In this document: piece by piece, positions 1-34,084 of the stretch | Layout: every line of letters starts with the position of its first letter | How positions within the stretch are numbered: position 1 is the first letter of the stretch | NCBI GenBank assembly: GCA_905178155.1 | Contig: CAJINV010000041.1 | Location: 36,014 to 71,202, forward strand | Reading direction: 5' to 3' | DNA from: Amoebophrya sp. A120 | Taxonomy: Eukaryota > Protista > Dinoflagellata | DNA length: 35,189 bases | The notes under the pieces: model-generated | Told to the model about the DNA's origin: nothing | What the model saw: the letters and a program-made list of their open reading frames with translations, nothing else | Databases searched by the model: none | Made by a program: the position numbers and the translations under genes

Positions 1-560
1 GGGCCGAGCCGAAATCGACGTCCGGGCCGACGTCGATTTCGCGGGCCAAGCCGAAATCGACGTCCGGGCCGACGCCGCGGGCCAACCATACCAAGGAAGC
101 CCCTGCGCCCGCGCTCCTCGACGGCATGGCGCCCCCGGGCCGACGCCGCGGGCCAACCATACCAAGAGAGCCCCTGCGCCCGCGCTCCTCGACGGCATGG
201 CGCCCCCGGGCTCGCCATATGCGAGCACCCGGCACCCGGAGCGCCGCGAAATGCGCAAGCCGAAGGCCGGACGCGTTGCGAAATGTGAGGCACCAGCATC
301 CGGGACGCCCCTGCACCCGTTGCCCAGACGGTGCGGCGCGCCAGAGCCCGCCCGACAGGTATCCGGGGGCGCCTGGCTGTCTGCTCGCTTTCTGTAAAAG
401 CAGAGGGCGCCGGGCGGCCTGAGGAGGCAGGCAACCTGGCAGCCGCTCTTCAAAATGCCCGGCCGCCGCTGGCGCCGCGCTGGCCGACCCCGCTGGCCGA
501 GGCCTTCGCCCAGCAGCGCGGGAGCGGACCTGCAGGGGCAAAAGCTTCCCCTCCTGCCTG
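1..560. repeat. GC-rich repeat region with hairpin and 71-bp tandem duplication (probably part of a non-autonomous element, truncated by window edge)
   Basis: 13-bp perfect inverted repeat 10-22/29-41 (cgaaatcgacgtc); 71-bp period duplication about 64-208; ORFs here are low-complexity P/R/A-rich. Confidence 0.6.
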
Positions 561-836
561 ATGTGGTCGGCGGGCCCGTTCGGGGCTTGGGCTTCAACCT
601 GCCCGACGCAGTCGGGCGTCTTTTTCTGAGTTCGTTTCGCGTCGAACAGACCCGCCTCCGCCTCTCCCACTTTTTGCGCCTGGGTGATCGATTTTGCCGC
701 GGCAGCGTTCCACGCCACAAATGCCGCGCAATTGAATGGCGCCGCGGTTTACGAAGTCGATGTTGCTCAGGCCCCTGCGGCTGGTTTTTTGGCCTGGCTC
801 AGGAATTCTGGTGTGGCCGTGCTTGTCCAGATGATA

Positions 837-3101
837 TCGAGGCGAAAACCCGCGAGCGCGATGAAATATCAGGGTGAAATATTCCGTCTCCTCCCATTCT
901 CGACTGAAAGAGCAGGACACGTATCTTTGCACGAGTCGTCTTTGTCATGCACATCGAGCAGTACGCAAGTTTTACCTCTGACTCTAGGTGCCTTCCATTT
1001 TTGGCATGCCTCTTCTGCAACTGTAGGAAAAGGGCTGTTCCGGATGCAACACGGCATTGCATTGCAGTGCTTCGTAGTGAGTTCCACCCGCAAACACTTG
1101 CTTGCACCGGTACGGCATATCAGAGTTTTCTTCGGGTATTGGGGACGTTGGATTTTGCATCACGATACCTGCAGGTGGCTAAGCTGAAAGCCGAGCGCGA
1201 CTCACTTCTGAGCGACAATCTCCAGCTGCATATCCAGGAAAAACGTACGTATTACAACATAGGCTGATGTGATTGGCATTGTCGCTGCAGAGGTACTAAA
1301 CGACTGTATACGCCTGTCCATCTATCGAACATTGGCGATTGCATGCTCACTTATGCATGGATAGTGCTGAATACAGTGGATAGCGCTGAATTCAGACCTT
1401 ACGAAAATTTACTGCCATGGGAAAAGAATTGCATATCAGCACACCCACGGTCCGTACACTTTTTCGCAGGATAGTATAGGAAGCGTTGCATACCATGTTG
1501 AAAAATGGTCGCAGCATTCGAAATCTGTCATGCCGTAACGGACCAAGAAGAAAACTGCAATGCATTTCTGATGTCACAAAGCGTTCCGTGCTTCATCCTC
1601 GGATTTGTTCACAACGGGGTGTGCATACTTTTCTAGCTGGCAGTCTTTGTGTGCACATTGGTATGAAGAAGGACTCACTATGCTACGAGCACTTTTCTCA
1701 TCGATGCAGCAAGACCACAAAGAGCTCCTGAAAAAGCAGACCGATAAGGTGACCAGACTGGATACCCCGTGTAAAATTATTCCCGCTGTATGCATGAACA
1801 CCGTTCCTAATGCACAAGTTTCTCCATAAATGTAGGAGTTGCGCAAAAATTATTCATCAGGAAGCGCAATTTTTTTCACAAATCAGAGACGCGTGGAGTG
1901 ATGGTGGATAATTCTGATGCTGAGCTACAAGTCCTTGCGCAGTTGCTGCGAAGTTTGCTAGCTGTCCAGCCATATAACGTTTGGATATGGACCGGGAAAA
2001 GTTTTACACGGGATTCCAAAAACTGAGGTGACCGACCTGAATATCGAGGAAAAAAACAAACCCATCACCAACTTGCAATTGTATACATGAAGGGCAAGAA
2101 TGTGATGTCTGGCATGATCAAAACTCTTGCCTGTGATGCACCTGCATAACCGTCGAGGCAGGCTTGAAACTACGTGGCCGTCCTGCATTTTTGCGCAGCA
2201 CGACATGCATTTTTGTATCACAGATTCGTAAGACGGTGCTGGTGGTGTACTCTTTTCCTTCGATATTGCCCGGACAGGTGGAAGAGGCCCGGGAAAAGGC
2301 TGCGTCTCTGCAAAAACAAGTCGACGAGCTAGACATATGCTGCGCAAAAGTACATCCTCGTTCCAGATTCTTATCATACCTTCCGTGCCTTTCTTCTTGT
2401 TGGTTTTCAGTGCCTTTGCCTTTTTTTACCGCAGCGCTGTTCCTGCTCTCCGAGCGGAAAAAGTCCCCGTTTCCCAGGACAGGAACAAGCGGCTTCTTTT
2501 CGTCATTCGTCGTTGAATGTTGAGAAGCTTGCAATGACATCACAGGTCGGGGAACAATATAATGCATTTACAAACCGTTTTAAGTTTGGTATGGTGGATC
2601 CGTGGATCACGTGTAGTTTGTGCAGAATAAACAATGGAACTCACCAGTGCGAAGATGAACGAAGCCGCCGCTGAACTAGAGGTGAAGAACGTCCAACGCG
2701 AGCTGGAAAAGAAGGGCCAGCAGATCGCCGCGCTGCGCCAGGAGCTAGAGGAGCTGCGAGAGAAAATGACGGAAAAGGACAAAGAGCACGACAAATTCAT
2801 CGAACAACACAAGAACGCCCTCTACCAGAACGACGGGATCACGGACATCAAGCGGAAAAAGGACGTAAATGCGCTCCAGCGGTACATCATGAAGAAACGA
2901 GAGCTGGACGAGGAGGTCCGGAAGGCGCACGAGGAAATCATCAAGGGCTTGTGCGAGGAACTGCGGATGGCCCAAGAAGAGGAGGAAGAACAGCGGAATC
3001 AGAACAAGCGCAAGCAGATGGACGATTTGGAAGAGTTCGACAACGCGTACCAAGGAAAGCGGCAGAAGACGACGGCGCGGGAGGAGGAGCAGAATTCGTG
3101 A
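837..3101 (+). CDS. 3' part of a multi-exon coiled-coil protein of unknown function
   Basis: Heptad-like exons (IEAKTRERDE; VAKLKAERDSLLSDNLQL; EEGLTMLRALFSSMQQDHKELLKKQTDKVTRL; ETEVTDL; NGQVEEAREKAASLQKQVDELD) join in frame to the terminal exon 2635-3101 when TAT..ATA elements + 5 nt are removed; junctions near 1474-1663 unresolved; start not found. Confidence 0.65.
867..1167. mobile_element. degenerate introner-type intron
   Basis: tatcagggtgaaa...ttttgcatcacgata ends; DR decayed (tgaaa/cctgc) but removal of element+5 nt keeps coiled-coil frame. Confidence 0.5.
1231..1473. mobile_element. degenerate introner-type intron (family B-like)
   Basis: tatccaggaaaaacgtacg ... cgtacactttttcgcaggata imperfect inverted ends; DR decayed. 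Confidence 0.5.
1763..2015. mobile_element. introner-type intron
   Basis: TIR ccgtgtaaaattattcccg / cgggaaaagttttacacgg; +5 nt removal gives RLETEVTDL in frame. Confidence 0.7.
2042..2265. mobile_element. introner-type intron
   Basis: tatcgaggaaaa ... ttttccttcgata; flanks ctgaa/ttgcc; frame restored (DLNGQVEEAREK). Confidence 0.7.
2336..2629. mobile_element. introner-type intron
   Basis: tatgctgcgcaaaagtaca ... tgtagtttgtgcagaata; flanks agaca/aacaa; frame restored (ELDMELTSAK). Confidence 0.7.
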
Positions 3102-4778: not shown

Positions 4779-7700
4779 ATGAGTGACGCGCAGCGGGATC
4801 AAGCGCCACTGCTTCCGAACGGGCCGCAGGAGGACACGAATGCGGGAATGCAACGGCCGACCACCCCCGCATCGCGCGATGATGCTGGATCTTTACTACA
4901 ACCTGTGCAACAGAGCGACCCGGTAGCGGCTACCACAGCTCCCTCCGCACCTGGAAATCCGGAAGAACCCTCGTCCCGCGCGGGAAATGCGCAGCAAGAA
5001 CTGGAAGAACACGACGCACAGCTGTATCGCCTGAAAGAAGAGCATGTCCAGGGTTCGGTGTCAGTTCCTAATTTGAAAGTAAACTTGCAGGTGTGCTCGT
5101 GAAAGAACTCGGTACAAGATGTTGTAGTAGTGAAAGCAGCTTGTTGATTCCAGATGCGGAAAAAGTACTTACTAATGCGGAGGCATCAGAATCTGCAGTG
5201 AGACTGATACTCCCTGGACGTGCACATGTTTGTTTTCCATGAGCCGCAAGTTGCGGCTGGACGCAGCGTCGCGCAGCTGGGGGAAACGATACTGGAAGAA
5301 CGGCAGAACCCTATTCCGAGCAGGCACATTACATCGCATGAACCCGTTGGTCTACAAACACCGGTGTTGAACGCAGCGGTGGTGGGATCGCAATCGCAGC
5401 CTAGTCGGCAACCACTTGAACAAGAAACAACGGCAGATGTACAAGACCCTTCTTCGCTATTTCAACATGGCATAGCGATTCAGCCGAGCGACTTGCGCAT
5501 CGGGATGGAACACTCCCAAGCAAGCCATCTGCGCACCGGAACAGCACTTCTCGGTGGCAGCGTGCACAGTGAGGGTGCGCAGCGCAGTGGCGACGCGGGG
5601 CCCGGCATGATGCACACCACAGCAGGATCTACTTCTCTGCTTGAAACTAACGTGAACACGACGTCACCGTCTAATAAGCTGCGAACGGGGAAATCCCAGT
5701 CCGGTAACGTGCACATAGCGCAGTCTAGCAGCGTGGGATCGCAGCCGAGCAACGTGTATCTGGCGCAGTCTAGCAGCCGGCAGACCGGCGGTGGATCCCG
5801 GCCGAGCAACGTGGGTTTTGCGCAGTCTAGCAGCCTGCAAAGCAGAGTTGGATCGCAGCCGAGCAACGTGTATGTGGCGCAGTCTAGCCACCCCCGCACG
5901 GGTGGGACCGAATCGCGCAACGCACAGGTGAATATCTCTGTGCAGAGCCGCGCTGCGCCGGGGGCTCAACTGCAGAAGACAACTAATCTAGTACAGAATA
6001 GTGGTTCATCACAGCCGAACATGGACGCAGCTCTGCACCAACCCACACTACCGCCTGCAACGGCGTCCAACATTGATCCAGCACAAGGACACGACTCCGC
6101 GGTCCAGCGCGGAGCCCAGCGGCCACCCCTGGCACAGCAAGAACGGGCCTCACAGCCAATCAACCACCCGCGGCGCAGCGAGTTGCGGTCCGAAAATTCC
6201 TCTCATGATACCTTTCCTGTGAGAGGACTTTTTGCCGCAACGTCGGCATCGTCCCACGCCCCCACGGCGACGAGCACCGGCAATGAACTTTTTGCTCCTC
6301 CATCTGCTGGCGTTTTCCCACATGCTGGTGCCTCGTCTTCACGCCAACCAAGCAGCGCGACCCAGGCGACGGCTTCGGCTTCAGACAACAGGTTCGCACC
6401 AACTTCCCGCAGCGCCGGTGTGCAGAATTTCTCGTCCCTATCAAATGCAAAAATATCTGGGTCTCAAGTCTGGGGGATTGCAAGATTTGTCATGCGTATT
6501 TTGTATGACCCATAACGCCTGTTGTGCAGGACCTAGCATGACAGGTTCTGTTAGGTCCTATCATGCCTATCCTGCATGAGAAACTTCCTCTCAGCTTGGT
6601 CAAAAGTGGACAGCTTTTGGCATTCATGCAACACAGATTTTTGCACGATCCAGAATTAGCATTACAGGTTGCAACCTTCCAGACCCAGACATTTTTGCAA
6701 TGCATAATCCCAATATGCCGGCAAGACGCAGACCGGAGGATCCCAACCCAGCAACGTTGGAACCGCGAGGCCACGCCGTTCTCCACCAACTGGGGCGACT
6801 GGGTAAACGAATGCTTTTATAACTTTTCTAGATAAGTTCTTGAGGACGTTCTGCCAAAGAAACTGCTCCAGTCGAGTTTTACTAAACAAATTCTTGCTTG
6901 TTCTACGTTTTCAGTATGTCGGAAAATAAGCTCTATTTCGTTTTGATGCTTCTAAAGAACACGAAGACACCACGAGAAACTCAACAGGTTACTTGTGGAC
7001 CGCACACACGACGAAGCTGCGGCTGCACAGATCGGGGAATCGCGGCCTCCGAGAGTAACAGGGCACTTCAACCGACTGCAAGCCCGGATCAGACGCCTCG
7101 GAGGAACTGTAACAGACGGGGGTTCGCAACCTAGCAGTGCACAACCCGGCACTTCGTCCTCCAGCAGCAGTCTATTCCATATAAAAGTGCACCCAGCCTG
7201 GGACGAAGCTTTCTATACTTCCCGGACTCCCACAAAAAACTTGGGTACTTTCTGGCATTCAAGAAACAAGTTTTCTTGGTGGCTGATGCTGAAAAAAAAA
7301 CTGAGAAAGTGACGCTGTGAAACCTAGAAATCAACGGACTCCGCTCGGGCAACGTCGTTTAAGGTTTCCCGGGAAACCTTCGGCGTAGCTCGTGCTAAAG
7401 TGTGTCGCAATGCAACCGAAAAGGCGGCGCGCGCATGGACTCCGCTGCTGTTTGTGTACACAACCGCGCCGCGTCTGTGTTGCAGTCTCTTGTGCCCAAA
7501 GCGCCGCAGACGGCTGCGGATTGCGAGCAACCTGGCGGCCCCGGCAAACCGGCGCACATTTTCGCCTGGCCTAACTTGGGCCGCTTCAGACGATCTTCCG
7601 CCGGTGGCACGGCCTCGCTTTGGGCGGAGGATTTTCCAGCGGATTCGTCAGAGGGCCCGAAGATCCTCTGTCGGGTCCTCTGGCCCAATTTGGACCGCCT

Positions 7701-15580: not shown

Positions 15581-16094
15581 CAGAAAATGCTGGTTCATTA
15601 CTGTGGTAGATTGTAATGCGCAGAGCGGCGTGTATGACTGACTTTTGCATGCCCTGTTCGAGTTAGCATCAAAATCATCTCAGCATTACAAACTAACATT
15701 TGCGATGAAGCGGCAACGATGCTTTTCCATGTCACAGTAGATAACGATGGCGGAAAGAAGGACGGACGGTGAAGGGAGGACGCAGTGGCGCAAAAGCAAA
15801 ACCGTGTCTCATTCGATGTCAAATACATAGTAACAGTACAAAATCAGTAGTCAGTTCCAGTGTTTCAAGTTATGATTTTTTTGCTATAAATTTTACATCG
15901 CAATATAGCATTACTAACTCACGATGCGTCTTACCAGTTGGTGCACAGATAAATAAAGTATGATCTCAACAAACAGGCAAAATTTATATCTCCACGTATC
16001 CGTTTCGACAATGCAGTATAGCGACAGCACGGATGTTATTTTCTCGTTTCTTCAGGGCTAGTTACTGATAATTTACAGTTTGACGAAACTCAAG
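15581..16094 (+). repeat. 3' flank of paralogue 1, homologous to 25888-26359
   Basis: shared colinear blocks aagaaggacggacggtg, aaataaagtatgat, gtttga(c/t)gaaactcaag. Confidence 0.8.
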
Positions 16095-16802: not shown

Positions 16803-19800
16803 ATGGAGGATCCGCGGAACGCGAGAGTACCCCCTGCCGAAAATGCACAGGTTGCAGGCTCGCAGCCGACCGCATCTGGCGGCGCAGCGTCTCACGGAGG
16901 GGGGCCGGCGCCGAAGAGTGGTAATACCACAAACCAGTACAGCCAGGGCATGCAGCTAGCAAGCAACGAGCAGGGGGACCCGCAGGAAACCGGCGTGCAA
17001 TTGGGAATGATCCCACACATGACAAGCAGTTCCTCGGAGGTCGTCCTGCGGCAAACCAATAGGACGCAGCTCAACGAAATGGAGCCGTCCAGTTACCAGC
17101 AGACTGGAGGATCCCAGCCAAGCAACCTGCAGTTCGGCGGGGCGCAGTCCAGTTACCAGCAGACTGGAGGATCCCAGCCAAGCAACCTGCAGTTCGGCGG
17201 GGCGCAGTCCAGTTACCAGCAGACTGGAGGATCCCAGCCAAGCAACCTGCAGTTCGGCGGGGCACAGTCTAGTTACCAGCAAACTGCGGGTTCCCAGCCG
17301 AGCAACCTGCAGCTTGGTGGGGCGCAGTCTAGTTACCAGCAGACTGGAGGATCCCAGCCGAGCAACCTGCAGCTCGGCACAGCACAGTCTAGTCACCAGC
17401 AGACTGGCGGATCTCAGCCAAACAACCTTCAGTTTGGCGGAGCACAGTTTAGTTACCAGGAGACTGGAGGATCCCAGCCAAGCAACCTCCAGTTTGGCAG
17501 CGCACAGTCTAGTTACCAGCAAACTGCGGGGTCCCAGCCGAGCAACCTGCAGCTTGGTGGGGCGCAGTCTAGTTACCAACAAACTGCGGGTTTCCAGCCA
17601 AGCCACTTTCACTTTGGCGGAGCACAGTCTAGCACCCTGCACACCGCGGGATCCCAGCCAAGCACACTTCAGTTCGGCGGAGCACAGCCTAGCAACCTGC
17701 ACAGTGCAGGATCCCAGTCAAGCAACCTCAACTCGGCGCAATCAAGCAGCCTGCACTACACAGGTATACCCGCCCAGTCGAGCAACGCACAATTAAACGG
17801 CAGCCTGCAGAGCAGCGGTGTGCAAATGGATGTCGTGCAGCAGCAGACAAATCTGCAGGTCAACGGCTCGCAACCAAGCAATTTGCAATCAACGCTGCTG
17901 AACCCAGCTAGCCCACCGGAGCTTCTCGGCCAGCATGCCGTGCCGAACACGGAACCAGCTGCGCATCAACAACCCGCACCACTTCATCTCCCGAACCCCG
18001 CGAACGCACCGCAGGTGGCTGGTCCGCCGGGAGTATCAAGTGTAAAAATGTCTGGGTCTGGAAGATTCCGGAATTTGTGATGCATCTTTCGTATGATCCG
18101 CGACGCATGTAATGCATGATCTAGCATCACAGATTTTTAGAGGGCTTGCTGATGCCTATTCCGCATGAGAAATGCCCTCTCCACGTAACACAAACTGGAG
18201 TCCTGTTGCTGGTCACGTAATACAGATTTTTTTGGAATCCGAAGACAGCATGACAAGTTGCAATCTTCCAGACCCAGACACTTTTGCAATCCATAGGGAG
18301 ACGGAGGAAGCTCGTCGCCAGGAACGGCAAGCGCGTCCATGTATCACCCGCAAATATGTCTGGGTCTGGAACGATGCAAGGTTTGTCATGCAGGGCTAGC
18401 ATGTCTCCCAAGTCTGTCATGCACGTTAGTACCCAAAAGTCACGTTTCTCTGTTACGCAGAAACGCAGTTTATTGTCATGCAAGATAGGCAACACTTAGT
18501 AGCCCAAAAATTTGTCATGCTTGGCTGTCAATGGAGGCGTCGCGTGGTTCGCCACATAGCATCACAAGCTTCCAGACCCAGACGTCTTTGCAATTGATAC
18601 TATGCGGTCGGGCACAACGATCTCGTATACAGCCTCGTCCCTGCGTCACACGACTCCGCACCTGAGGGAGGAGCGGAACTTCGCGATAGAGGATCTTCGC
18701 TACGTTATTGAAATGACAAAACCCTGCACGCCTCCAGTCGGAAAGAATAAATACATAAGAGTTGAGGGACTTGCTCATGCCCTGAGTCAACGCTCCGTCA
18801 AGCGGTCAAGGATCTCCAGGCGCCGGCAGATTCGTGTTATTCCCAAAAGCCTTACATGCTTGCGGAAGAAACACAGTGGCGCACGATGCAAATCCAGCAA
18901 TCGAAGTAAGTATTCTTTCACACATGGCATGAGGATTTTTTATTTCAATATTTGCAAAGCGGCAGCTGGACCAAGCCAGGCGCGTGAAGGCGTTAGCAAT
19001 TCAACAGAGGGACCACTACAAACAGCAGGCGGACCATATCTATGGCGCTGAGAGCACTGGATGCCCCAACCCAGAAAGAAGCTGTTGCTTGAATTCTTGT
19101 AAAGCCTCGTATCATGCACACATGGAAAACAGCATAAAGGATAAAAAAATTTTGTGCATAGTCATGTCGCAAAATACTTGCGAATCAAACGCGCCATAAG
19201 TATTCCTTGTAGGCAAACTTTTTCCATTTTCTAGCGGATCTTTACAACAACCGTATGGCTTCAAGTGTTGTAAAAGCAGAAGTACTCCTTCTGGAGTTGT
19301 CGCTACTAGTTTTGGCTGAATAACGCGAAAGACGAAAACTAAAACCTGTGAAGTGAAGACGAAAGCACCTGTCGTGTAACGAGCCCATCGCGCCATTGCT
19401 TCCACTATAGTCGTGATCAGACTATAGCCGCTGAACTTCTTTCGATTGCAGTGTGGCGAATGTTGTCAAAAAGCGTTTGCGTCGCTGCTCTGCAGCGTAA
19501 ACTCGAACTGAGTATAGACAGCAGGTGCAGGCTCTATGCATTGCAAATATGTCTGGGTTTGGAAAGGTGCAGAAAAGTGATGCTCCTTTCCAGGCACACA
19601 AAAATCTGTCATGCATGAGTGGCAAAAGCTTCCGCTTTCGGCGAAGCTGAGAAAGAATTTCTCGTGCTGAGTAGGCGTTGCAAGGCTCTCATACAGCCTG
19701 TGAGGATGCTAAACTCTGCAATCCAGACCTCGTGAGGCATACGAGACCTGCATGACAATGTCTGTACTTCCTCGGATGCAGACATGCTTGCACTGAACAG

Positions 19801-22800
19801 GTTTGCAGTTCATACAATGCCTAAATAAGCATCAGCGCGATGTATATTCCCGCGTTGCCAGCCTCGAAACGGAGCTCCAAAGCGCCCGAGTTCTAGCAGA
19901 ATTCTACAAAAGCAGGTTAGATTTCTACAAAATGAACGACGCAAGGGACGAGGAAAGTAGAAACCTGGAAGAACAAATCCGCAACGAGCAGGGGAAGTGC
20001 TGGGGCCTTCGCCACAAGCTTCGGGATGCAGAATCCGAGCTAAGGAGGAAGGAGACGGAACTGCAGCTCGCTGAAACCCGCTGGAATTCCCTAAAGCCCA
20101 GCGTCGCAAAGCTGCTGGAATCGGCCGAAAACCACGAGAAAAGGGCCCTGAACAACTACCGCGAATACGATTGCTTCAACAAAGCCGACTGCGATCACTG
20201 GTGCAAGACGTTTGTGTTGTCGCGCGACTCCTTCGCGCGCGACATTTCCGTCCTGCAAGCTTTCATCGCCAAGACCGTGCCACGTGAAGCAATCCCCGAA
20301 GACGTTGCTGCCATCGTGAACGAGCTGGCCGACTCCTCCGACTACTGCTGGCCGGATCAGGACACCCTTGTGATCAGCAACCGGGACAACACGCCGTATG
20401 ACCCGGACAAGAGGAACACCTGGCCTGCAACGGATTTAGCAGATAAAGAACGCGTCAGCGGTACCATCACCTCCCTTCCGGACGCGATTGACATCATCTC
20501 CCAACTTGCAATCACCTGCTCGCATCGCATGCAGGAAGCAACCATGTACAAGGCCGAGCTGGAGCAAATGTGGGCAAAAACGTCCTCCGACGACACTGCC
20601 TTCGACCAGGTAGACAGCAAACGGAGCGGTAGTAGCCTGCCGCGCAGTGCAGACCAGCGGACGCAGATGTTGGATACGCGAATTGCGGAGCTCCAAAAGC
20701 AACTGCAACAGAAAGGCGCAAAGCTGGCTGAGACCGACTCGAACCTGAACAATCTAGTGGAGCGCACGCGACGATTCTTTGCCCGGGAGGAGAACAGACT
20801 ATCCGAGGAAAAAACAAAAGAGCTCGAGGAGGATTTGGACAAGATGCGCAGCCGGGCACTGGAGCGGTGGGATAACAATGCGTCCCGCCTGCAGGCGGCG
20901 GTGGAACGAGCACAGCGACAGCTTCATCAACAACACTGCTCAGCGGCGGTGGACAACACTGCTCTTCAGCAGGCCGCGCAGCAGTCGGACGGCCCCACCT
21001 ACATCGACTCGGCACTAGAAGCCGTCCGCGACATGCGACCACTAGTGGAAACACTGTCCCAGCCTGCAGCCCTTGCAGATGCGCACAACAAAATGAAAAA
21101 CGGGAAAGATGAAGTAGCCGATCTCCGAAATCTCGTGGAGGAACTGCATTGCGCGCGCATCAGGAATCAAAATGAAGAGGAGGTCGCACGACAGGAGGCC
21201 AAGCTCCAAGAAATTATATCCTCGGGAGGCATCGATCAGCCTTCACCTAGCGCAGCAAAATTCGATACGGGCGATGCGTCAGAGTGCCACTGCATGTCAA
21301 AAGAGTACGTCTGCATGGCTGGGTGAAGCTGTTTGTAGTGCGCGCACCTAGAAGAGGTCGGCCAGCTGGGCTAACAGCTAAGTAGCCTGCTAAGCTCTCG
21401 GCCTCTCTTGTTCTTTTGGCGCCAGGAACTTGCAAACAGCTTCACAAGGTTCGAGCTAAATTTGTCCTCGTTTTTGGGTGAAGGCGCCTTTCCTTGCAAT
21501 GACGCCTGTCGACCAACTACCCCGCAACCATATCCTACAGAACAGCACACACATACAAGAAAAGTTGATTTCTTGTGTCGCTGTGTTTCTTATAGCACAA
21601 GAAACGTCGCCATGCTGATTCTCAAGAAGAAGAAAAACCTGTCATACAGCAAAATGAAGATTGAAATGAGGTCGTCGTGGGAGTACGTTTGTGATGCTGC
21701 TCAGCAGGACGTTTTTGTAGCTCGTCATTTCTTGGAGGACTTTATCCTTTTGGACGCTTTAGTATCTACTCCTTGACGAACTGCATCACAAACGCTTTCT
21801 GATATGGTATGGGTGTGCTGTTCTGGAGGGTAAGCCATCGGGGCCGCACAAAGGGTTGACAACGTCATCGACGCGATCGGAGGTGTGGGTATCCTACAGA
21901 AGAGTACGCACATACCATGGTCAAAAAGCATTTGTCTTGAAAGGAGAACCTCTTTGTCTGCCGAACAACACAACCTTTCCTTCCTGATTTTTCCTGTTCC
22001 GCATTACAGATTACGTCTTCCATGCCAGAAAGTGACCCATCTTCTGCTCGCCGCATCACGGCCTTGTCACTGGTGCTGGCAGAGGAGCAACAAAACTGAT
22101 TGCTTTTTTTTTGTGCTGTGTGTGTGCTTTTGTTCGCAATAATGGGGCAGTTCCGATATGATTGAAAAGTTGCTCCACATCCAACAGAAGACCAAAGTAG
22201 TGTTCTGCTGCGAAAAGCCAGGCATAAGGGGTAACATTTCTCCTTCGGCATGAGTTTGTTCCCTACCACGCAGAAGACTGCGCGCTCTCTTGCGAAGATG
22301 ACGGGCAACTTTTTCCAAAGTGATACCACCGTAGTGAACACCAGTCTGTACGACCCCACCGTCGGCGCAGCTACTCGGTCCCTGCGAGAGCTCGCCCCCG
22401 CAACTAATCCAATCGCTGCTAAGCTTGCGTCGCAGGTGGAGGACCTCGCCCGGGAAGTGTGGTTTAAAACTAGGCTTCTGCGCGAACGCGACCAAAAGTC
22501 CCCCGGCTCGGCGGCCATCAATCCAGGCATCAGCAGTGGTGTTTCTACTCCCGCCGCGGCCTCGGATCGGATGACGAAAGACGAGCTTCTGCAGCGGCAG
22601 GCGACGCAGCTCGCGCAGGTGCGGTTCGAGCGCGATCTCTACCGCACCGCCCTTCGCAGGTGCTACGTCGACCAGGGGTTGCAGTACTTCGACGTATGGA
22701 GACGAATACACTCCTGTGCCGGGAGAAATCAGTTTGACAGGCTGCTCGCTGATGTTGATGTTTGTTTGCATGTATACTCAGAATACTACGCAGGGGATGC

Positions 22801-25800
22801 ATGCATGATCGCAAAACCCTTAACCTGAGTCAGTGCCTTTGCTCCGTCACAGGAGGTATTCGTGGTCTATAGACGTCCGGCGACATGTATGAGTTCTATG
22901 ACGAGGAAGCCAACGCACGAAGCCGATCCGTTCGCCTGCTCCACAGGATCCGGGCGGTCACCAAGCATGCTGACAAGCTCATGGACCAACTATCGCATGC
23001 AAATATGTCTGGGTCTGGAAAAGTGGAACTTCGGTTGAATGTTTGGGAAGATGCAGTGTGTCATGCAAAGACTAAGTTTGTCATGCGTGCGACACATCAG
23101 ACGCCGCCAAACGAACCTGTCATGCTTGGCTGCACTCGAGAACACCAGACTCATCCATACTATCGCATCACAAATTTCCAGACCTTGCCATATTCGCAAT
23201 GCATACCCATTGCACAATAACTACGTCTTCCAGCAGCAGCTCCTGTGGAACGAGGCCCTGGAGGCTGAATTTCGTGCGGATCGGAAGGGCCCACAAAAAA
23301 ACAACCTACCGGCCCTTAACCGTGCGGCGGAAGAACCTGCTAAGGCCTCGACAGGACTTTCGGAGAGCAGGTATAGAAAAGACTAGACATTGTAAGACTA
23401 TGTCGAACAGCAAATAGTTTGCATTCGTGTTGCTGTTCACAAATGTTCTTGACTATGGTCCTTGGCAAGACTCGTTGAGGTTGTTTATTTATCGTGCAAA
23501 AAAACAAAATTGTTCCAATGGCAAAACAGCACTCCTGCGGGGCGCCACTATAGCGCCACCGAGTTGTCCCAGCAGCTGGTCGCTGTGTCCAACAGTGCTC
23601 TTCTGGCACGGGAAACGATCCTGAAGCAACAGCTCCATATCAAAAAGCTCCTAGCCGACCAGGACGTTCTCAAAGTTGAGCTCAAGCAACAAGTACGCAC
23701 TGCAAAAATGTCTGGGTCTGGAAAGATGCGAGGTTGTTTTATGCAGACCCTGGATTACGCAAAAATTTATGTTGCATGAACGCCAAAAGTTGTCGCATTT
23801 TTTCTACGCCGCAAGTGCCGACTTTCTCATGCAGGATAGGCATCAAGACACCTGGACAAAAGGTGAAATGCTTTTTCGCGCATAGCTGAGCATCTGCATG
23901 GTCCAAAAGATGCATGACAAACTTGCGCAGTCTTGTTCCACACCCAAACAACATATTTACAATGCATAAGAAGCCGGAGCAAGCAAGTACCTGCGACTCT
24001 CCATCGCCAAGACGAAACCCGAGCTGAAGGAGGAAGTGATATCAAATGCAAACATGTCTGGGTCTGGAAGACTGCAGATTTTTGTCATGCTGTTTTTGCA
24101 TGATACACAAGGTCTGTCATGGAAGCCCTAGCATCACAGCTTTCGAAAACGTTCCGCAATGCTTAATCCGCATACCAAATCCTCCTTTTTGGTGACAGGA
24201 AATTGGCACCCTTTGCTGCCTATGCATGAGACATTTGCCTGTGTAATTCGCATCACAAGTTCGGATCCTTCCAGACCCAGACATATTTGCATTGGAAAGG
24301 TCACGAAGCTTTACCATTCGTTTCTGAAGCAGGACTGGACCTTCCTCGAAGAGCTACCCGCGGATATGGACCAGGACCTAGTCGGCTCTGCGAGGTCGTA
24401 CGCGTCGCAATACCGCATCGAAGAATCTATCCACGCCATAGTACAACAAGGCTGCTAGAATGTTGCGTCCTTTTACCTGCATGTTGCAGTGCAACAAGGC
24501 TCGTGGGAAATAATCTGATGGACCCCAACGAACATTTTGTCACGCGGCGAGCATGATAACAGGCAGCAGTAGCCGGCTTTTGTACAACAGCTCACAGTGC
24601 AATTGTGACAAAAGGTCGATTGAACGCAGAGCTAGCAAAAACCAAACAATGGCGTGCATAGATATTTTGCAACGGAATACGTACTACACTTTTCTCGTCG
24701 CGTACGGAGCCCGCTTCTTCATGGACCCACGTTTCGTCGAGATTGCCGATCGCAGCGAGCAGACGTTTATTCACCAACCTTTGGACACTACGACCTCCAA
24801 AACCGAGATAAATGCGTCGACTTCTTCTTCTGCACCAAAAGTCCGACAACACATGCCGCAGCTGTACGACCCTACCCTCGCTGCCGAAATCTTTCAAAAG
24901 CAGGCGGAGCAGATCAAAAAACTCGAGCAGGAAAAGGACGCCCGGAAGGCCATCGCTGGTCGCAGGACAGCGGAGGGACTGAATAATAACTCCAGAAACT
25001 ACGAACCTACAGGAGGACTCGCCGGCGAGTTGACAGCTGCCGGTTTCTCCTCCTCGTCCGGTGCCCCAAGTAGCAGCTCGGCGAAACAGGTGTCGGTGCC
25101 AGAATCTCTGTTGCCGCGGGTGGAAAGGAGTGATACTACGGGAGCGGCGGCGAGTTCGAGCAGTGTTAGTGGGAAGGAGGTAGTGGAAAACAACAGCAGT
25201 GCAACGCCTGCGACGTCGCAAGGGCTATGGATTGCAAAAATGCCTGGGTCTGAAACTTGTAATGCTGTCTCTGGATTCTAAAAAAGTTTGTATTGCATGA
25301 CCAGCAAGAGGACTCCAGTTTGTGCTACACTTCTCTCTGGGCATTTCTCATGCGGTAGAGGCATCACAAAGGCCTCTAAAAATCTGTGATGCTAGGATCA
25401 TGCATCATAGACGGCGTTGGTCATTCAAACTATGCATGACAAACTTGCCATTTTGCATTGGATAAGGGCCAACCACGAACAACTTATCCGACAGGAAAGT
25501 GCAGCCAGATCAAAAGAAATAATGAATTTGTCTTGCTATTTTTCTGGAACAAAGGACGAGTCATTTGTGATGCTGATCATCTGCAAGACAGACGAGAACT
25601 TGTCACGCAAAACGAACATTGTAATGCAACATTGGGATGAAACAAGGTTGGCAAGAAAATTTGTGATGCTCAACAGGCAGGAAAGAGCTTTTTGTGGCAC
25701 AACAAAAAAAGCATGGGAAATGGTATTTTAGAATTTCATCTGGGTGCACTTTTCTCTCGGATACAGTTCCTCCGCTAGTACTACTAGCACTGCTGCAGTA

Positions 25801-25887
25801 TTGAACCGCAGAAAACAGTCGTCCTCGCCGACCGAAGGCGCACCGGTGCGGAAGCGGCGGCACACGATTACAGGCTACCGCAAGTGA
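16803..25887 (+). CDS. multi-exon hypothetical protein, paralogue 2 (20-aa QSSYQQTGGSQPSNLQFGGA repeats, coiled coils, C-terminal RKRRHTITGYRK)
   Basis: Long exons 16803-18033, about 19803-21322, about 22250-22771; junctions across introners restore frame; colinear similarity with paralogue 1; some junctions unresolved. Confidence 0.65.
17088..17745 (+). repeat. 60-bp coding tandem repeat, about 11 copies
   Basis: lines 17101 and 17161 are identical 60-mers; copies diverge progressively toward the 3' end. Confidence 0.97.
18034..18295. mobile_element. introner family A
   Basis: family A TIRs; perfect DR gggag; frame restored (PGDGGSSSPG). Confidence 0.95.
18342..18599. mobile_element. introner family A
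   Basis: tatcacccgcaaatatgtctgggtctggaa ... ttccagacccagacgtctttgcaattgata; DR ccatg/ctatg; interior similar to 27494 copy. Confidence 0.92.
19535..19799. mobile_element. introner family A (diverged right end)
   Basis: tatgcattgcaaatatgtctgggtttggaa start; cagacatgcttgcactgaaca end; exact right boundary uncertain by about 1 nt. Confidence 0.7.
21531..21832. mobile_element. introner family F
   Basis: tatcctacagaacagcacacacatac ... gtatgggtgtgctgttctggagggta; DR aacca/agcca. Confidence 0.85.
21890..22141. mobile_element. introner family F
   Basis: tatcctacagaagagtacgcacatac ... gtgtgtgtgcttttgttcgcaata; DR gtggg/atggg. Confidence 0.78.
22991..23205. mobile_element. introner family A
   Basis: tatcgcatgcaaatatgtctgggtctggaaa ... 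tttccagaccttgccatattcgcaatgcata; DR ccaac/cccat; frame restored (MDQLHNNYVF). Confidence 0.88.
23694..23968. mobile_element. introner family A
   Basis: tacgcactgcaaaaatgtctgggtctgg ... catatttacaatgcata; DR acaag/agaag; frame restored (LKQQAGASKY). Confidence 0.88.
24040..24298. mobile_element. introner family A
   Basis: family A TIRs, right end ggaaa; DR agtga/ggtca (both changes synonymous); frame restored (KEEVTKLYHSF). Confidence 0.9.
25226..25464. mobile_element. introner family A, opposite orientation to 18034, right TIR internally deleted
   Basis: perfect DR agggc; right end retains only cattttgcattggata. Confidence 0.92.
25485..25763. mobile_element. introner family D
   Basis: tatccgacaggaaagtgcagccagat ... 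atctgggtgcacttttctctcggata; DR caact/cagtt; removal yields the C-terminus matching paralogue 1. Confidence 0.9.
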
Positions 25888-26359
25888 CGCAAAATTCTTC
25901 CTCATTACAACCATGTCAGTGTGTAATGCATAGGATTGTGCGGAAGTGCATGATGGGTGACTGCGGATTTTTCTCGATCTTGGAAAAGAGATGAGGCGTA
26001 TAGCATTGTTCAAACTGACATGTGCTGCAATGACGAAAATTTTCCATTTCATAGTACATAATTTCTTGCGGCAAGAAGGACGGACGGTGCAAGGAGGACA
26101 CAGTGGTGGAAAATTGTAAATCTCATGTGATGTAAAGTAAGTACAAGTAAAACAATACAATTTTAGTAAGTACACAGTTCCAGTATATGCAAAGTATCAC
26201 TTTATCAGTTCTTGCTGCACAGGTGAAATAAAGTATGATTTCGAACTGACAAAATTTCAGATCAACAGCGGTTTAGTTGCAAGATTTCTAACCAAGTGCT
26301 CTCGATCTTTCTTTTGGCACCAAGAACTACTGACAAGTTACCGTTTGATGAAACTCAAG
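25888..26359 (+). repeat. 3' flank of paralogue 2, homologous to 15581-16094
   Basis: 17-nt identity at 26073-26089 vs 15755-15771 plus other colinear blocks. Confidence 0.8.
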
Positions 26360-27432: not shown

Positions 27433-30400
27433 ATGACAGAGATCAGCGTCAAAGTCGCGGTCCGGGTTCGGCCGTGGAATGACCGTGAGAAACTATCAAA
27501 TGCAAGTATGTCTGGGATTGGAAGTTTGCTACATTTGTCATGCATGTCTAACATGAATCAACAATCTGTGATGCATGGGCACCAAAAAGCCCTCTTATCT
27601 GTCATGCAAAATCGCAGTTTGTCATGCGTAATACGCAACACCTAGCAGCCCAAAAATTTCTCATGTTTGGCTGCGGATTGCAGGTGTGCGCCTACTGATT
27701 CACTTTTAGCATCACAACTCTCCAGACGAAGACATACTTGCTTTGCATAGAAGCAGATGCAGTGTAAACTCGCGGTGGAGATGCCGCCGACGTCGGGAAA
27801 CGAATATCAGAGGGCACATGTCTCCCTTCCCCTCATTCGTAGTGCAAAAAGGCCAAATCCTGTCGGAACTCTTTGGCTGTGCTTGCATGACAAGTTCTGG
27901 AAGCTGCCGCCCAAACTGCACTTTGCTCCGTGCGTGCGTTTGTAATGCTCAGACTGCATTTTTGAGGTGGTTTGTGATGCTACAAATGCATCCTTCCAAA
28001 TTACGGGGAGGGGGACGAGTTGTGTACTCGCATCACGAACTCCCGAATACCACCGTTCTGAAAGACCTGGACGACACGGGAGCGGAAAAACAATTCACGT
28101 TCGACTACTCGTTCTGGTCGCACGATGGTTTCGTGGAGGATGAGAAAACCGGGCTCACGGTGCCGGATGTTGCCAGTGTGGCCGCCGGCGGGGGCGGCGG
28201 CAAGAAAGGCAACAGCAAGCCGGTATACGCGAGCCAGCAGACGGTTTACGACAAGCTCGGCGTCACGGTGCTCAATAACGCGTGGGAGGGCTACCACTGT
28301 TGTCTATTCGCGTATGGACAGACCGGCGCTGGGAAGTCGTACTCCATGGTCGGGTACGGGGCGAACAAGGGCATCGTGCCGCTGGCGTGTGACGAAATCT
28401 TCCAGCGCATTGACAAAAACAAGGACAAGAACCTCGAGTACGACGTGGTCGTGTCCATGTTGGAAATCTACAACGAGAAGGTGCAGGACCTGCTGATTCA
28501 CCCCAACAAGCGGCCGGTTGGAGGTCTGGAAATCCGCGAGTCGAAGGAGCTGGGCGTGTACGTGGCAAACCTGACCAAGTGCAAGGTGACCAGCTACAAG
28601 GAGATCGACCAGATCATGGAGCAGGGAATCGGGAATCGCACCATTGGCAGCACGCTGATGAACGCCACCAGCTCGCGGGCCCACACGGTGCTCGGCATCG
28701 AGTTGAAGCAGCTCTCACACGTCGGCGACCGCGTCGGGACGAAGTATCCTGAGGAAAAACGTCCCTACCCCAGAGTTTTCATGCAGATTTGCAATGACAA
28801 GGAAATTTCTGATGCGCACACCCATGGTAGACATTTCCATTCGTGTTTTGGAATTTGTGATGCTATGAACAGGATACCCAGATGAATCTCTGATGCAGCT
28901 GCACTTGCTTAAGTACCTGCACTATGCTACGGAGTGCATTTTGTCATGCGTGACTCCCAGAACTCCTAGGTTTGTGTTGCAACATCCCCATCTTGACTCT
29001 GGTGTGGGGACGTTTTCACTCAGGATACGAAGATGTCCGTCATCTACCTGGTGGACTTGGCTGGCAGCGAGAAGGCCGCGAAGACGGGCGCGACGGGAGA
29101 CCGGCTGAAGGAGGGCATATCAAATGCAAAAATGTCTGGGTCGGGCAGATTGCGAGATATGTCATGCTATAATCTGGCATGATTCTGAACTCTGTATTGC
29201 GTGGCCGCACAGAGCTCCTCCTCCCTGCCATGCTAAAATGCAGCTTCTCATGCGGAATACGCAACTCAGAACCATGAACATAAACTTGTCATGCTTGGCG
29301 GCGCATTAAAGTGAGCTCACTATTCCCTTCCTTGCATCACAAGTTTCCCGACCCAGACATTTTTGCACTTGATAGGGCAGCGCGATCAACAAAAGCCTGT
29401 CCTGCCTGGGAAACGTGATCGAGAAACTGGCGGACGCGTGCAGTGGCTATGATTTGTAAAAACGTCCCCACACCATAGTTGTCATGCTAGTCTGCATGCC
29501 AAAAAAGTTTGTCATGTTGAGCGCCATGAGAGGCATTTTCTAGTAGTGTTTTGGAATTTGTGACGCTATAATCAGAATGATATACTAGATCTGTGATGCT
29601 GCTGAACTACGTAAATAGGATTACACTACGAGGAGACACTTGTCATGCCAAACGACCAAAGCTGGCTGATTTGTCTAGCAGATTTCCCATCTTGACTCTG
29701 GTGTGGGGACGTTTTTACAAATGATAGTGGCAAGGTCGCTCTGAAAAACATCGTGATTCCCTACCGGGACAGCAAGCTGACCCGGCTGCTGCAGAACGCG
29801 CTGGGAGGCAGCTCCTTCACCGTCATGATCTGTGCGATTTCGCCCGCGAGTAACAATTACCAGGAGTCGCTGTCCACGCTGCGGTACGCAGACCGCGCGA
29901 AAAAGATCAAAAACCAGTCCGTGGTCAACGAGGACCCGCAAGACAAGATCATTCGGCAGCTGCGCGAGGAAAACGCCAAACTCCGGGAAATGGTGGAGCA
30001 AGGGGGTGGCGTGCAGGTGGAAACGAAAACCGTCGAAAAGCTGGTGGTGGACGAAGCGGCCATGGGCAAGGCAAAGGAGAAACACGAGAAGGAGATCAAG
30101 GCGCTGGAGGACGCGCTGATCCAGATGCAGCAGGATTTCTTCAAAAAGTTGCAGGAGGAGAAGAACAAAAAGAAGGTCGAAACGGTGGTGGAGGAAAAAG
30201 AGATCGTCACCGTGAAGGAAATATCCTGAGTAAAAACGTCCCCGCCCCAGAGTTGTCATGCAGACTTGCAATGCCAGGAACATTTGTGATGCGCATCCCC
30301 ATGATAAGTAGGCATTTACAAGCGTGCTTTCGGAGTTGTAATGCTGTAACCAGGATACTAAGCACACGGATTTGTAATGCGGCTGTCCTTTCCAACCTGC

Positions 30401-33400
30401 ACTACACTACACCACTGCAACTTGTCATGCGTGACTGCCGAAGCTTCTGGATTTGTGTTGCGAGCGCACCGTCTTGAATCTGGTGCGGGGTCGTTTTTCC
30501 TCAGGATAGGATATCGTCGTGCAGGAGAAGATTCGGGAGAAGCATCTCGACTTGCCGCACATTTCCAACCTGCACGAGGACCCCATGCTCGCCGGGAAAC
30601 TGCACTACTCCTTCCCGCCGCCGGGCAAGGACGACAAGGACGACAAAACGGAATGGTGGCTCGGACGGCAAGTGTTGAACGAGAACTGGAAGCCGCACGT
30701 GGTGCTTGCTGGCGTCGGCATCCAGAAGAAGCACTGCCGCATCACGTCGAAGAAGGATCCGAAAACCAAGAAGAACGTGGTGACGCTGTTCGTTTCGGAC
30801 AAGACTGCCATCGAGACCACCTTCGTCAACGGCGACAACTTCTTCTTCGAGGGCGGCGAGGGCTGCGAGCTGACGCACGGCGACCGCCTGATCATCGGCC
30901 AGAATTACGTGTTCGTGTACATCGATCCGGCCACGTTCCTCTCATCTGCGGACGGGAAAACGGAGTACTGCAACGACCTGATTGACGCGGGGAAGTGCAG
31001 CTACGAGTTGGCCAAGAAGGAGCTGGCCGAGAAGCAGGGCGACCTGTTTCTGTCCGGGCAGATGAATAAAGATGCAGTGTCGTCGAACCAGGAGAATCTG
31101 AAGCAGTTGGAGGAGCAGAAGAAGCTGCAGCTGGAATACGAGGAGAAGCTGAAGCAAGCCGAGCAGAAGAAGCAGAAGGCGCAAGAAGAGATGCTGCTTG
31201 AGCTGAAAAAGAAGGAGGAGGAGTACCAGCAGGAGCTTTTGCGGATGCAGAAGCAGATGGCCGAGTCCGAGCTCAGCCAGGAGCTGAACCAGGAAAAAAA
31301 ACAGGAGTCCGAGCTGAAAAAGATGGAGCTGGAGTACAAGCAGCGCAAAAAGCAGATCGAACTGAAGAACCGCCGGGAAATTTACCTGATCGAGAAGAAG
31401 CAGCGCATGCTTATCCCGAGTAAAAATGTCCCCACCCCAGAGTTGCCATGCAAATCTGCATGCCAAAAAAGTTTCTCACGCGGAGCGGCCCCATGAGACC
31501 CATTTTCCAATCCTGTTTTGGAATTTGCGATGCTTGAATCACCATGGTATGCTACATCTGTGATGCTTCTGAACTAGCTAAACACGACTGATTACACTGC
31601 GCGGACAAACTTGTCATGCCAAACAACCAGAGCTGGTTGATTTGTCTAGCAGATTTTCCATCTAAACTCTGGTGTGGGGACGTTATTAATCAGGACAACG
31701 CTCGCCCTCGAGGAAAAATTGCGCAAGGACCGCGAGCAGGACATTGCCGTCATTGAATATCAAAAGGAAAAATCCCCCCTCCCCATATCGAAAGCGAAAT
31801 TTGTGATGCTGTATTTGAGTACACAAATCGACTTGTAATGCTAGAAGGCCAAGAGACGCAGCGGTGGCCTCGTTTGCAGGCACTTTGTCATGCTGTTTCC
31901 CACTTCCAGCTGCCCCCTGTCATGCTGAAGATGCAAGGCTTTCTCACGCCAACCAGCACTACAGTCCGCATCTTTTCCCTTCTAGCATGACAAAGCTGAT
32001 TTGTGACCACAAATCTGCATCACAAGTTTCTAGTTTGAGTATGGGGTGGGGGGATTTTTCACTTTGATATTGAAGAGCTGCTGACCACCAATGTCCCGCT
32101 GTGCAAGGAGGCGACCGCCCTGTCGCTGGAGATGAACAAGGGCTACTCGTACCACCTCCGGCTGAACATCTTTCCCGTGACCGACATGGCCGGGAAGAGC
32201 CTCCGATCGGGCGGCTTCCGCCTGCTCCAGCCCTCCGTGCTGGTGGTGTGCAAGAGTGCGGAGGGCGACCAGCTCTTCGAGTGGGACGCGGACACGCTGG
32301 AGAACCGCGTGTTTCTCATGCGCGAACTTTTTGACCACTGGTGCCTAGGCGGCCAGTTCGACCTTAAGACGCTTCCGGTCGACCGCGACCCTTTCTGGGA
32401 CCCCGTCACGACCGAGTACTTCATCGGCAGCTGTCGTGTGTACTTGGAACCACTGATCTACGGCTGCCTCGTGTCCGTCGACGCCAAACTCCTGGGGCCG
32501 GAGGGCAAGCCGGCGGACGCCTACCTGCGCGTCGAGCTGGAGCGAAAGCAGAACTCCACGGAAAAGTCAAATGCGGGCGACAAAAAGTACGACTCCATCG
32601 AAGAGCTGGAGGACGAATGCGACCACGGCCTGACCGGCGGGAGTTTCAGCTTCAAAATCAAGGTGGCCAAGCTGCGGAAGCTGGACGCCAAGAAGTGGAA
32701 GAACCCGCGCGTCGAGTTTCAGTACTACGTCGACGAGAAAACGGTGGTGCGCCCGAAGCGGGACAACAAATCCGAGTTCATCTTCGACTACTCGAAGACG
32801 GTGAAACAAGATCCCGTCACGGAGCGGTATCTGGAGTATCTGCGAACGGGGGTGCTCACGTTTTCGGTCTTCGCCTTTTCCAAGCACGCTATCCAACTGG
32901 ACCAGGAGCAGTATTGTGAGGAAAAATCCCCCTTTCCCTTATCGAAAACGAAATTTGTGTCGCTGTATTTGAGTACACAAATCGCCTTGTATTGCTAGAA
33001 GGCCAAGAGACGCGGTTGCTATCTCGTTTGGAGGCAATTTGTCATGCTGTTTCCCGTTTCCAGTTGTTTCCTGTCTTTTGAAGACGCATGGCTTTCCTGC
33101 GCCCGCCAACACTACAATCCGAATCTCTTCCCTTCTAGCATGACCACGCCATTTGTGATCACAAATCATGCTGCACAAATCTCCGTTTTCATATACGGAG
33201 GGGAGATTTTTCATTTTGATAAGCAGCAAACCGAGCTTGCTGAACGCCAGGACCAAACCTCCTCGTCCCCGGACAGCAAGAAGAAAAAGGCTGAGGCGGC
33301 GCAGAAGAAAAAAACCGCGAACGAGAACGAAGAGCTGGATGCAAGCACCAGCGGAGCCTATTCTGGGCAAAAACGGCGGCAACACCCCATAGTCAATGAT

Positions 33401-34084
33401 TGGTAAATCTGCAACACAAATCCTGAAGTTTTGGGAGTTCTTCATGATAATTTTCTATATGTAGCGCAGTGCTGCTTCGCAATGGAACAGCCGCATCACA
33501 ACAACGCCTGCTTACAGCATTACAAATCTCAGAACACAACTACAAATTCGATTCCTCTCATGCGGATGTGCATTCCAAATACCCCCGTAATTGCAAATCT
33601 GCATGACAACTATGGGGTGGGTACGTTTTTGCACAGTATAGCGCGGGTCCCATGTTTTTCGCCGAACAGTCACGGACCAGTCCCGAGCTGAAGGGAAATA
33701 ACAAATCCCTGTATCCTGAGGAAAAACGTACGCACCCCATCCCCAGCAGATCTGTCGTCAAATACCTCTGCATGCTCGGTAAGTATCGTCTCGCATGCAA
33801 AAATCAGGCTTCGAGATATCTCAATTTGATGTGACGTGCTTGCATACGCTTAAAACGACGTCGCAGCGAGTTCAGATTTGTCGGGTCAGACACCTCAAAC
33901 TTTGTAATTGTCTTATCCAGATTTTCTCTCTTGACTCTGAGGTCGTTGTGTTTTTGCCCAGGATACTCCGGCGGACATGGCTAACGAGCAGCATTTCTTC
34001 GTCCCGTCGCCGGATCTCAACCGTAAGCGATACGAGGTTCTCGATAAAAATCGAGACCAGAGTCAGGCGTGCGTGATCTTGTAG
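27433..34084 (+). CDS. kinesin-3 family motor (KLP-6/KIF28-like): motor domain, FHA domain, coiled coil, tail, C-terminal CaaX; 12 exons, 1186 aa
   Basis: Exons 27433-27493, 27755-27804, 28040-28744, 29033-29117, 29380-29447, 29732-30221, 30514-31411, 31703-31757, 32075-32911, 33227-33358, 33646-33711, 33971-34084 total 3561 nt with no internal stop; motifs [94 protein letters not shown]. Confidence 0.96.
27494..27749. mobile_element. kinesin intron 1, introner family A
   Basis: DR gaaac/gaagc; REK|QMQCKLAV. Confidence 0.93.
27805..28034. mobile_element. kinesin intron 2, introner (family C-related, diverged)
   Basis: perfect DR acgaa; tcccttcccc/ggggaggggga inverted ends; GNE|LPNTTVL. Confidence 0.88.
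28745..29027. mobile_element. kinesin intron 3, introner family B
   Basis: tatcctgaggaaaaacgtccc ... gggacgttttcactcaggata; perfect DR cgaag; GTK|[13 protein letters not shown]. Confidence 0.96.
29118..29374. mobile_element. kinesin intron 4, introner family A
   Basis: near-perfect 28-bp TIR; perfect DR gggca; KEG|SAINKSL. Confidence 0.96.
29448..29726. mobile_element. kinesin intron 5, introner family B
   Basis: atttgtaaaaacgtccccacacca / tggtgtggggacgtttttacaaat; perfect DR gtggc. Confidence 0.96.
30222..30508. mobile_element. kinesin intron 6, introner family B
   Basis: tatcctgagtaaaaacg ... cgtttttcctcaggata; DR ggaaa/ggata. Confidence 0.94.
31412..31697. mobile_element. kinesin intron 7, introner family B
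   Basis: interior closely similar to intron 5; DR atgct/acgct; QRML|ALEEKL. Confidence 0.92.
31758..32069. mobile_element. kinesin intron 8, introner family C
   Basis: tatcaaaaggaaaaatcccccctccccata ... tatggggtggggggatttttcactttgata; perfect DR ttgaa. Confidence 0.96.
32912..33221. mobile_element. kinesin intron 9, introner family C
   Basis: interior closely similar to intron 8; perfect DR agcag. Confidence 0.95.
33359..33640. mobile_element. kinesin intron 10, introner family B in reverse orientation
   Basis: reverse complement of its right end (tatactgtgcaaaaacgtacccaccccatagttgtcatgcagatttgcaat) matches left ends of introns 3, 5, 6; DR gagcc/gcgcg (both encode Gly-Ala). Confidence 0.9.
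33712..33965. mobile_element. kinesin intron 11, introner family B
   Basis: tatcctgaggaaaaacg ... tgtttttgcccaggata; DR ccctg/ctccg; removal gives last exon ending ACVIL-stop. Confidence 0.9.

Follow-up and report, generated by a model that had tools for sequence, protein, structure and literature searches.

Introners of Amoebophrya A120 were described by Farhat et al. (2021; PMC7789003), and the inserts analyzed here belong to that same system. In the parts of that account available to us, A120 introners are about 240 nt long, with arms that comprise TAT, seven looser bases and AAA, and with direct repeats of 3–5 nt over their borders. They follow no dinucleotide rule; their splice sites are termed variable, and the position of the border is given as unknown. 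All nine predominant non-canonical A120 motifs in its Table S4 begin with N-T (none with TA), and eight of the nine carry A at −2. Nearly all spliceosomal proteins were found; a U1 snRNA was found in neither A25 nor A120, and no cognate transposase was found in A120. The words "lariat" and "template" and the stem "reverse transcri-" are absent from the main text.

The nearest analogue is the set of nonconventional introns of euglenids (Milanowski et al. 2016; PMC4770533). As far as the available portion of that paper goes, these share with the present introns variable, non-canonical ends, a stem that joins the ends, a longer 3′ overhang, direct repeats, a proposed MITE origin and a favored purine at +1 (25 of 33 introns here). 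They differ in register and in what is kept: euglenid introns pair +4..+6 with −8..−6, mostly as CAG/CTG, and retain complementarity rather than sequence, whereas here +2..+4 pair with −7..−5 as TAT/ATA and it is the sequence that appears to be kept. According to the accessible part of a review (PMC11282704), euglenid introns leave as circles without a lariat.

Introners that co-opt target-site duplications (TSDs; Gozashti et al. 2025; PMC12130899) are likewise DNA elements with terminal inverted repeats (TIRs) that derive splice sites from the target duplication, and A120 families are among them. The automated A120 calls, in the 19 of 58 rows of Dataset S2 at hand, are mixed: TSDs span 2–5 nt, and families are scored as co-opting both sites, carrying the 5′ site or carrying the 3′ site. 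In the introns described below, by contrast, both cuts fall within a 5-nt duplication and no letter is required. The available part of that paper also reports TIR elements with LTR-element-like ORFs. The introns of Fritillaria borealis are transposon-derived as well, with TIRs and TSDs, and an adapted U2 spliceosome is thought to be responsible for their removal; in the same portion of PMC11282704, they keep preferred ends (AG-AC, AG-AT) and a TAC target, whereas 14 different terminal dinucleotides occur among 33 introns here. The group III introns of euglenid plastids, in the excerpt of PMC3534033 at hand, resemble the present introns in U+2 and in a bulged A at a fixed distance near the 3′ end, but this is a resemblance only: they are organellar and U-rich, with G at +5 (7/33 here) and without TIRs or TSDs.

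The window (the whole stretch of DNA that was analyzed, 35,189 nt) encodes three proteins identical to gene models labeled A120 (P0002, P0004 and P0125). These genes hold 34 introns, of which one, a GT-AG intron, was dropped before counting, leaving 33. The 3′ part of a coiled-coil gene lies at 841..3101 on the plus strand; its spliced sequence, 839–3098, corresponds to residues 843–1075 of P0002, with exons at 841–865, 1172–1229, 1478–1489, 1711–1761, 2020–2040, 2270–2334 and 2634–3101. Six elements interrupt it. A seventh ends at the ATA at 836, the close of the right arm of a long GC-rich intron whose 3′ part fills 1..840 (plus strand) and whose start lies outside the window; on that strand, 1–840 contains no six-residue match to P0002, and the model resumes at 839.

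The six introns all begin with AT and end non-canonically. The first, AT...TG (866..1171, 306 nt), contains the element 867–1167 between repeats (862–866 and 1168–1172) that match at none of five positions, and the model permits only three or four letters of the left repeat to be kept. The second, AT...AT (1230..1477, 248 nt; element 1231–1473), has repeats matching at two of five positions. The third, AT...GC (1490..1710, 221 nt; element 1491–1706), follows a 12-nt exon and has repeats matching at three of five. Repeats match at two of five in each of the remaining introns: AT...AA (1762..2019, 258 nt; element 1763–2015), where the model permits four or five left letters; AT...GC (2041..2269, 229 nt; element 2042–2265), where the two repeats have no letter in common next to the cut, left or right, and only the cut that keeps four left letters yields the model's T899; and AT...CA (2335..2633, 299 nt; element 2336–2629), where four to six left letters are permitted. 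The original prediction, which had described the flanks at 867, 1763, 2042 and 2336 as barely matching, was correct on this point (0, 2, 2 and 2 of 5). Two of the exons between elements, 1478–1489 and 2020–2040, are just 12 and 21 nt long, an argument for definition of each intron from within.

These inserts are Amoebophrya A120-type introners, a class already published from this organism (PMC7789003, in the parts at hand). Their arms start with TAT in four of the six and with TAC in two (28 and 4, respectively, of the 33 introns in the three genes); the statement that all elements read TAT...ATA fails at 1491 (TAC...ATG) and at 1763 (TAC...ATT). Between 11 and 16 of the first 20 stem pairs hold in each of the six. 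A repeat spacing of 5 nt stands out over the 33 introns, with a mean identity of 0.62 vs. 0.22–0.30 for other lengths. Canonical U2 ends (GT/GC...AG) occur in none of the six P0002 introns and in one of the 34 across the three genes. The interiors of the six P0002 elements matched none of the other 27 elements at E 1e-6, so that they behave as the singletons of PMC7789003, whereas the other elements of the window match one another and loci elsewhere.

For a view of young copies, a piece of the family arm was used to scan another assembly of the metagenome collection, yielding 132 loci (L001–L132) and 114 elements with both arms. The 15 longest matches among these loci were 72–88% identical. 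A perfect 5-nt repeat flanked 93 of the 114 elements, compared with 0 to 9 of 114 for repeats of 2–4 and 6–8 nt, and the target letters were near-uniform. The family thus shows the terminal inverted repeats and the target duplication of fixed length that characterize MITE-type TIR transposons. Related elements occur in both orientations and both are removed (E 2e-37 and 1e-14), which places the signals in the arms that the orientations have in common. Within the window, stem pairing correlates with repeat match (Spearman 0.48, p 0.008, 29 introns); in agreement with the original prediction, the six are old introners with decayed repeats.

Removal of the elements opens a single coiled-coil frame of 235 residues. 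As originally claimed, excising each element together with 5 nt restores this frame, yet all six elements must be removed, not the four that had been listed. Nor does the frame prove the figure of five, for it tests length modulo 3 only: element plus 8 nt opens the frame at all six, and element plus 2 nt at five of six. The length of five instead follows from the repeat length in young copies (93/114) and from the gene models. On the sequence alone, the strongest case for keeping the left copy is a site that the original prediction did not cite, the element at 1231, where keeping three or fewer left letters brings in an in-frame TAG. Reassigned stop codons were considered and ruled out by the lack of an internal TAA or TAG in 2,624 residues with 169 Gln codons.

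To define the register, we counted the upstream-repeat letters left in the exon as k and took the gene models P0002, P0004 and P0125 as the reference. Over the 233 residues of P0002, k=4 gave no mismatch, k=5 gave two (K for Q852 and N for T899), k=3 gave four with a stop and k=0 gave eight with a stop. Over the 2,624 residues of all three genes, mismatches numbered 0, 8, 9 and 26 for k=4, 5, 3 and 0, and the introns compatible with these values were 33, 25, 24 and 12 of 33. The A120 models derive from cDNA assemblies that BLAT/EST2GENOME placed on the genome, and the longest ORF was retained; minor or variable cuts are therefore invisible in them. We are highly confident that the gene-model intron is N + element + NNNN, that is, N+TAT...ATA+NNNN, with four upstream-repeat bases and only the final downstream-repeat base remaining exonic. 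This single register, which fits 33/33 introns, contrasts with the variable sites of PMC7789003, as that account terms them in the parts available. The N-T starts of all nine A120 motifs in Table S4 support it; for A25, which has TTA arms, the published TT- starts likewise predict U at +2, and the introns of AT5.2 are canonical.

The originally predicted intron, TAT...ATA + NNNNN, is thus one base off, with k=5 excluded at eight of 33 introns, two of them in P0002. The left copy is exonic in four of its letters, as had been proposed, and its fifth is intronic; retention of the right copy (k=0) disagrees with the models at most introns. Among the residues that had been read from the left copy, LETEV and DQL match the gene models. 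LNGQ does not: P0002 has LTGQ instead, and it has DEQV at 867 in place of DEKV. At the IAL cited at 14255, the frame is open under any register. The right copy would bring in Pro only at 1763 and 2042, with Leu at 867 and Thr at 2336, not Pro or Trp throughout. Judging the junctions by how well their residues suit a helix was rejected as a criterion, since it preferred N at 2042 over the T of the model.

The letters at the very ends of the introns are free: +1 is A in 16, G in 9, C in 5 and T in 3. That repeat position 5 might be better conserved than the others was rejected (22/33 vs. 19–23). There is a suggestive drift of +1 toward A, with five A/C mismatches among 11 and A in 10 of 15 old introns and 6 of 18 young ones. 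Only 10 of the 33 introns have A at −2, unlike the motifs published in Table S4. AG ends occur in 2 of 34 introns, where the register predicts 1 in 16; the six large A120 families in Dataset S2 of PMC12130899 lie far above this, with AG ends in about 24–34% of copies among the 19 of 58 rows at hand. The AG excess and the A at −2 could, we infer, reflect sliding of annotated junctions inside perfect repeats.

What, then, positions the cut? In the 11 introns whose repeats agree no more often than expected by chance (on average at 1.27 of 5 positions), A+3, A−7, T−6, T−16 and T−17 were each present in 11/11 and T+2 in 10/11, with the proviso that the reference position was set by the TAT/TAC triplet in 32 of 33 introns (by the hairpin register in the other), so that conservation at +2 and +3 is partly built in, while the 3′ positions follow the model intron length. 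Most other stem pairs hold in just 2 to 8 of these 11. Over all 33 introns, A−7 is kept in 32. In the 18 introns with repeats of three or fewer matches, −7, −16 and −17 were unchanged in 54/54 cases and their partners +4, +13 and +14 departed in 12/54, an asymmetry between the 5′ and 3′ ends that was spotted post hoc in 18 to 33 introns from three genes. At birth, these same pairs are intact in 91–93 of the 93 copies. One exception to the motif is the element ending at 836, which has G at −16.

Because inner-end letters are kept while pairing decays, we lean, if only slightly, toward a spliceosome with relaxed requirements, measuring its cuts from short signals within the element ends. The failure to find a U1 snRNA in A25 or A120 is in line with this. 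The claim that the 3′ cut is set by the hairpin irrespective of sequence is correct for the end letters and not supported for the inner ones. Under the proposed mechanism, the introns would be old copies of a non-autonomous inverted-repeat transposon, whose insertion, judging from young copies elsewhere, duplicates 5 bp without target preference. As read from the gene models, excision takes out the element along with the fifth base of the left repeat and bases one to four of the right repeat, and so restores the original coding sequence exactly. The five intronic repeat letters drift, and the repeats decay without any shift of the cut. The letters that stay conserved, and that would act as signals, are N-U-A-Y at the 5′ end with an A near +12/+13 and, at the 3′ end, U−17 U−16 and A−7 U−6 at invariant spacing. 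U+2 may be recognized in the manner of a GU donor whose +1 position is relaxed. A−7 would be the candidate branch nucleotide, from which the 3′ cut may be counted with no need for AG, and the hairpin would help to bring the ends together and not serve as the ruler. Both arms bear the two sets of signals at birth, such that an element works in either orientation; both orientations do occur.

We hold more tentatively that the A120 spliceosome dispenses with G+1 and a terminal AG, reads U+2 A+3, branches at A−7 and counts from there. In the usual branch consensus, a U stands two bases upstream of the branch A. A−7 does not fit this consensus, as no conserved U lies two bases upstream of it.

The register could also be kept if the terminal RNA hairpin itself were the ruler, with an enzyme or an altered spliceosome cutting 1 base 5′ and 4 bases 3′ of the stem base. 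This explanation, which we consider unlikely but not negligible, has been proposed likewise for the euglenid nonconventional introns, and it amounts to the original prediction shifted by one base. Several observations are in keeping with it. The best-pairing diagonal of the two arms agrees with the reference register in 29/33 introns (three by tie); the pairs +2/−5, +3/−6 and +4/−7 hold in 28, 31 and 27 of 33 and +13/−16 in 30/33; all four double departures from the consensus stayed complementary; and young introns fold strongly (z −7.1 and −5.3). Other measures speak for letters rather than pairing. All five changes at +4 leave A−7 uncompensated, and the 29 stems show no excess of G.U over A.C (29 vs. 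35, p 0.81). The predicted terminal pairs, strong at 1230 and 2041, have near-zero probability at 1490 and 1762. Four of the six P0002 introns fold at shuffle level (z 0.79, 0.06, 0.42 and −0.46; 30 shuffles), and the intron 1762..2019 has a folding z of −4.8. In the 783-nt composite intron at 19036–19818, a nested or chimeric element, the 3′ arm finds a better pairing partner in an inner arm at 19535 (15/26) than in the model's donor end (7/26). On the other side, against a purely sequence-based reading, mid-stem mismatch is partly inborn: the pairs +5, +6, +8 and +11 hold in only 43, 50, 27 and 55 of 93 perfect-repeat copies.

It is improbable that the cut instead floats within the repeat, or uses nearby AGs, with the models recording just the commonest or longest-ORF form. 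The protein does pin only three of 33 junctions to one position (k=4 being the sole solution there), according to the legend to Fig. 3 of PMC7789003 the sites vary in position with respect to the hairpin, and many AG ends occur among 19 of the 58 rows of Dataset S2. A floating cut, however, is hard to square with one register in 33/33 introns; it would create stops at 1231 and 1491; and the seven informative introns (866, 1230, 1490, 22156, 22694, 25880 and 30221) all bypass in-frame AGs close to the 3′ cut. Among these, the cryptic acceptor ctgcag at 1169–1174 is passed over, as the original prediction had it: the in-frame AG at 1173–1174 remains exonic in the P0002 model, and its use would cost Q852.

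A test-tube-only removal by reverse-transcriptase slippage between direct repeats at a hairpin base (falsitrons) is scarcely credible even though young copies present the known recipe of a strong hairpin and perfect 5-nt repeats (PMC8240250, in part) and all evidence here descends from cDNA. At six of 33 junctions, three of which the protein pins to one position, the repeats have no letter in common left or right of the cut, as the original argument against a template-switch artifact had anticipated, and disruption of the repeat abolished the artifact in the available part of PMC8240250. Four of the six P0002 introns fold at shuffle level only. If left unspliced, five of these six would bring in an in-frame stop and the remaining one a frameshift. 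The motor domain of the window's kinesin, moreover, aligns gap-free to seven relatives over both the 28745 and the 29118 junction.

That kinesin gene (27433..34084, plus strand; model P0004, 1186 aa; Pfam Kinesin, KIF1B and FHA) holds 11 element introns. In its motor domain, four repeats are perfect and a fifth differs silently; one of these belongs to an element with worn arms (27805). The orphan gene (17826..26119, plus strand; model P0125, 1205 aa) has 17 introns, 16 of them non-GT-AG, and its model start at 17826 lies within a longer open frame that begins at about 16800. The regions 4780–15800 and 16800–26350 are two diverged copies of a large orphan gene, with a common C-terminal motif, SQPSN-type repeats and elements at differing positions. 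The paralogue at 13.8–15.6 kb was tried as a test of the register; it proved too distant for single residues and is open under every register.

Individual introns of P0125 show departures from the common pattern. The sole GT-AG intron among the 34, at 23371–23529, starts G-TAT, has repeats matching at three of five positions, and carries T at −17/−16 and A at −7; it may be an old element that is canonical under the common register. At 22694–22875 lies a GT...CG intron; an in-frame AG located 3 nt before its cut is ignored by the model. The intron 25880–26057 starts GCAAGT and lacks TAT, but its arms still pair best in the common register and its 3′ signals are intact; through it, the model bypasses a stop with which the preceding exon closes. 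Four stretches of the window (1–836, 7400–8200, 11274–11817 and 34800–35189) are long and GC-rich, with internal tandem repeats in units of 19, 71 and 114 nt. At 836 and at 11817 the stretch terminates in element arms, and some of the four may be long introners.

No Pfam family was found in the P0002 coiled-coil gene, and no Rfam match anywhere in the window. The last P0002 exon matched one protein among 1.84 billion representatives, namely P0002 itself (100% identical, labeled as an Amoebophrya sp. A120 gene model); a homologue search with this exon gave nothing among proteins of near length and only its own model in the full library. A metagenome scan for relatives of the same exon found none among 340 stretches, and the three window proteins had no match in the 132 loci. 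In a search for later published accounts of the register or the branch point, only Farhat et al. (2021), the review PMC11282704 and an Entamoeba preprint surfaced. The geometry described here may already be visible in Figures 3, S19 and S21–S23 of PMC7789003.

The intron class is already known, and the one-register rule is a sharper version of its description that makes the open mechanism testable. Tens of thousands of such introns exist, and the published account (PMC7789003), in the parts at hand, left their mode of cutting open. Decay of the repeats provides natural marks by which the cut can be placed with single-base precision. As nucleotides to test, the rule N+TA...AT-N+NNNN names U+2, A−7 and U−16/−17, and it offers a route to re-annotation of the genome. 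It also provides a concrete model of how a cell neutralizes transposon insertions without splice-site sequences. If the A120 spliceosome does read U+2 A+3, branch at A−7 and count, any insertion, in either orientation and at any 5-bp target, would be a perfect intron at once, which would explain how these elements invaded the genome.
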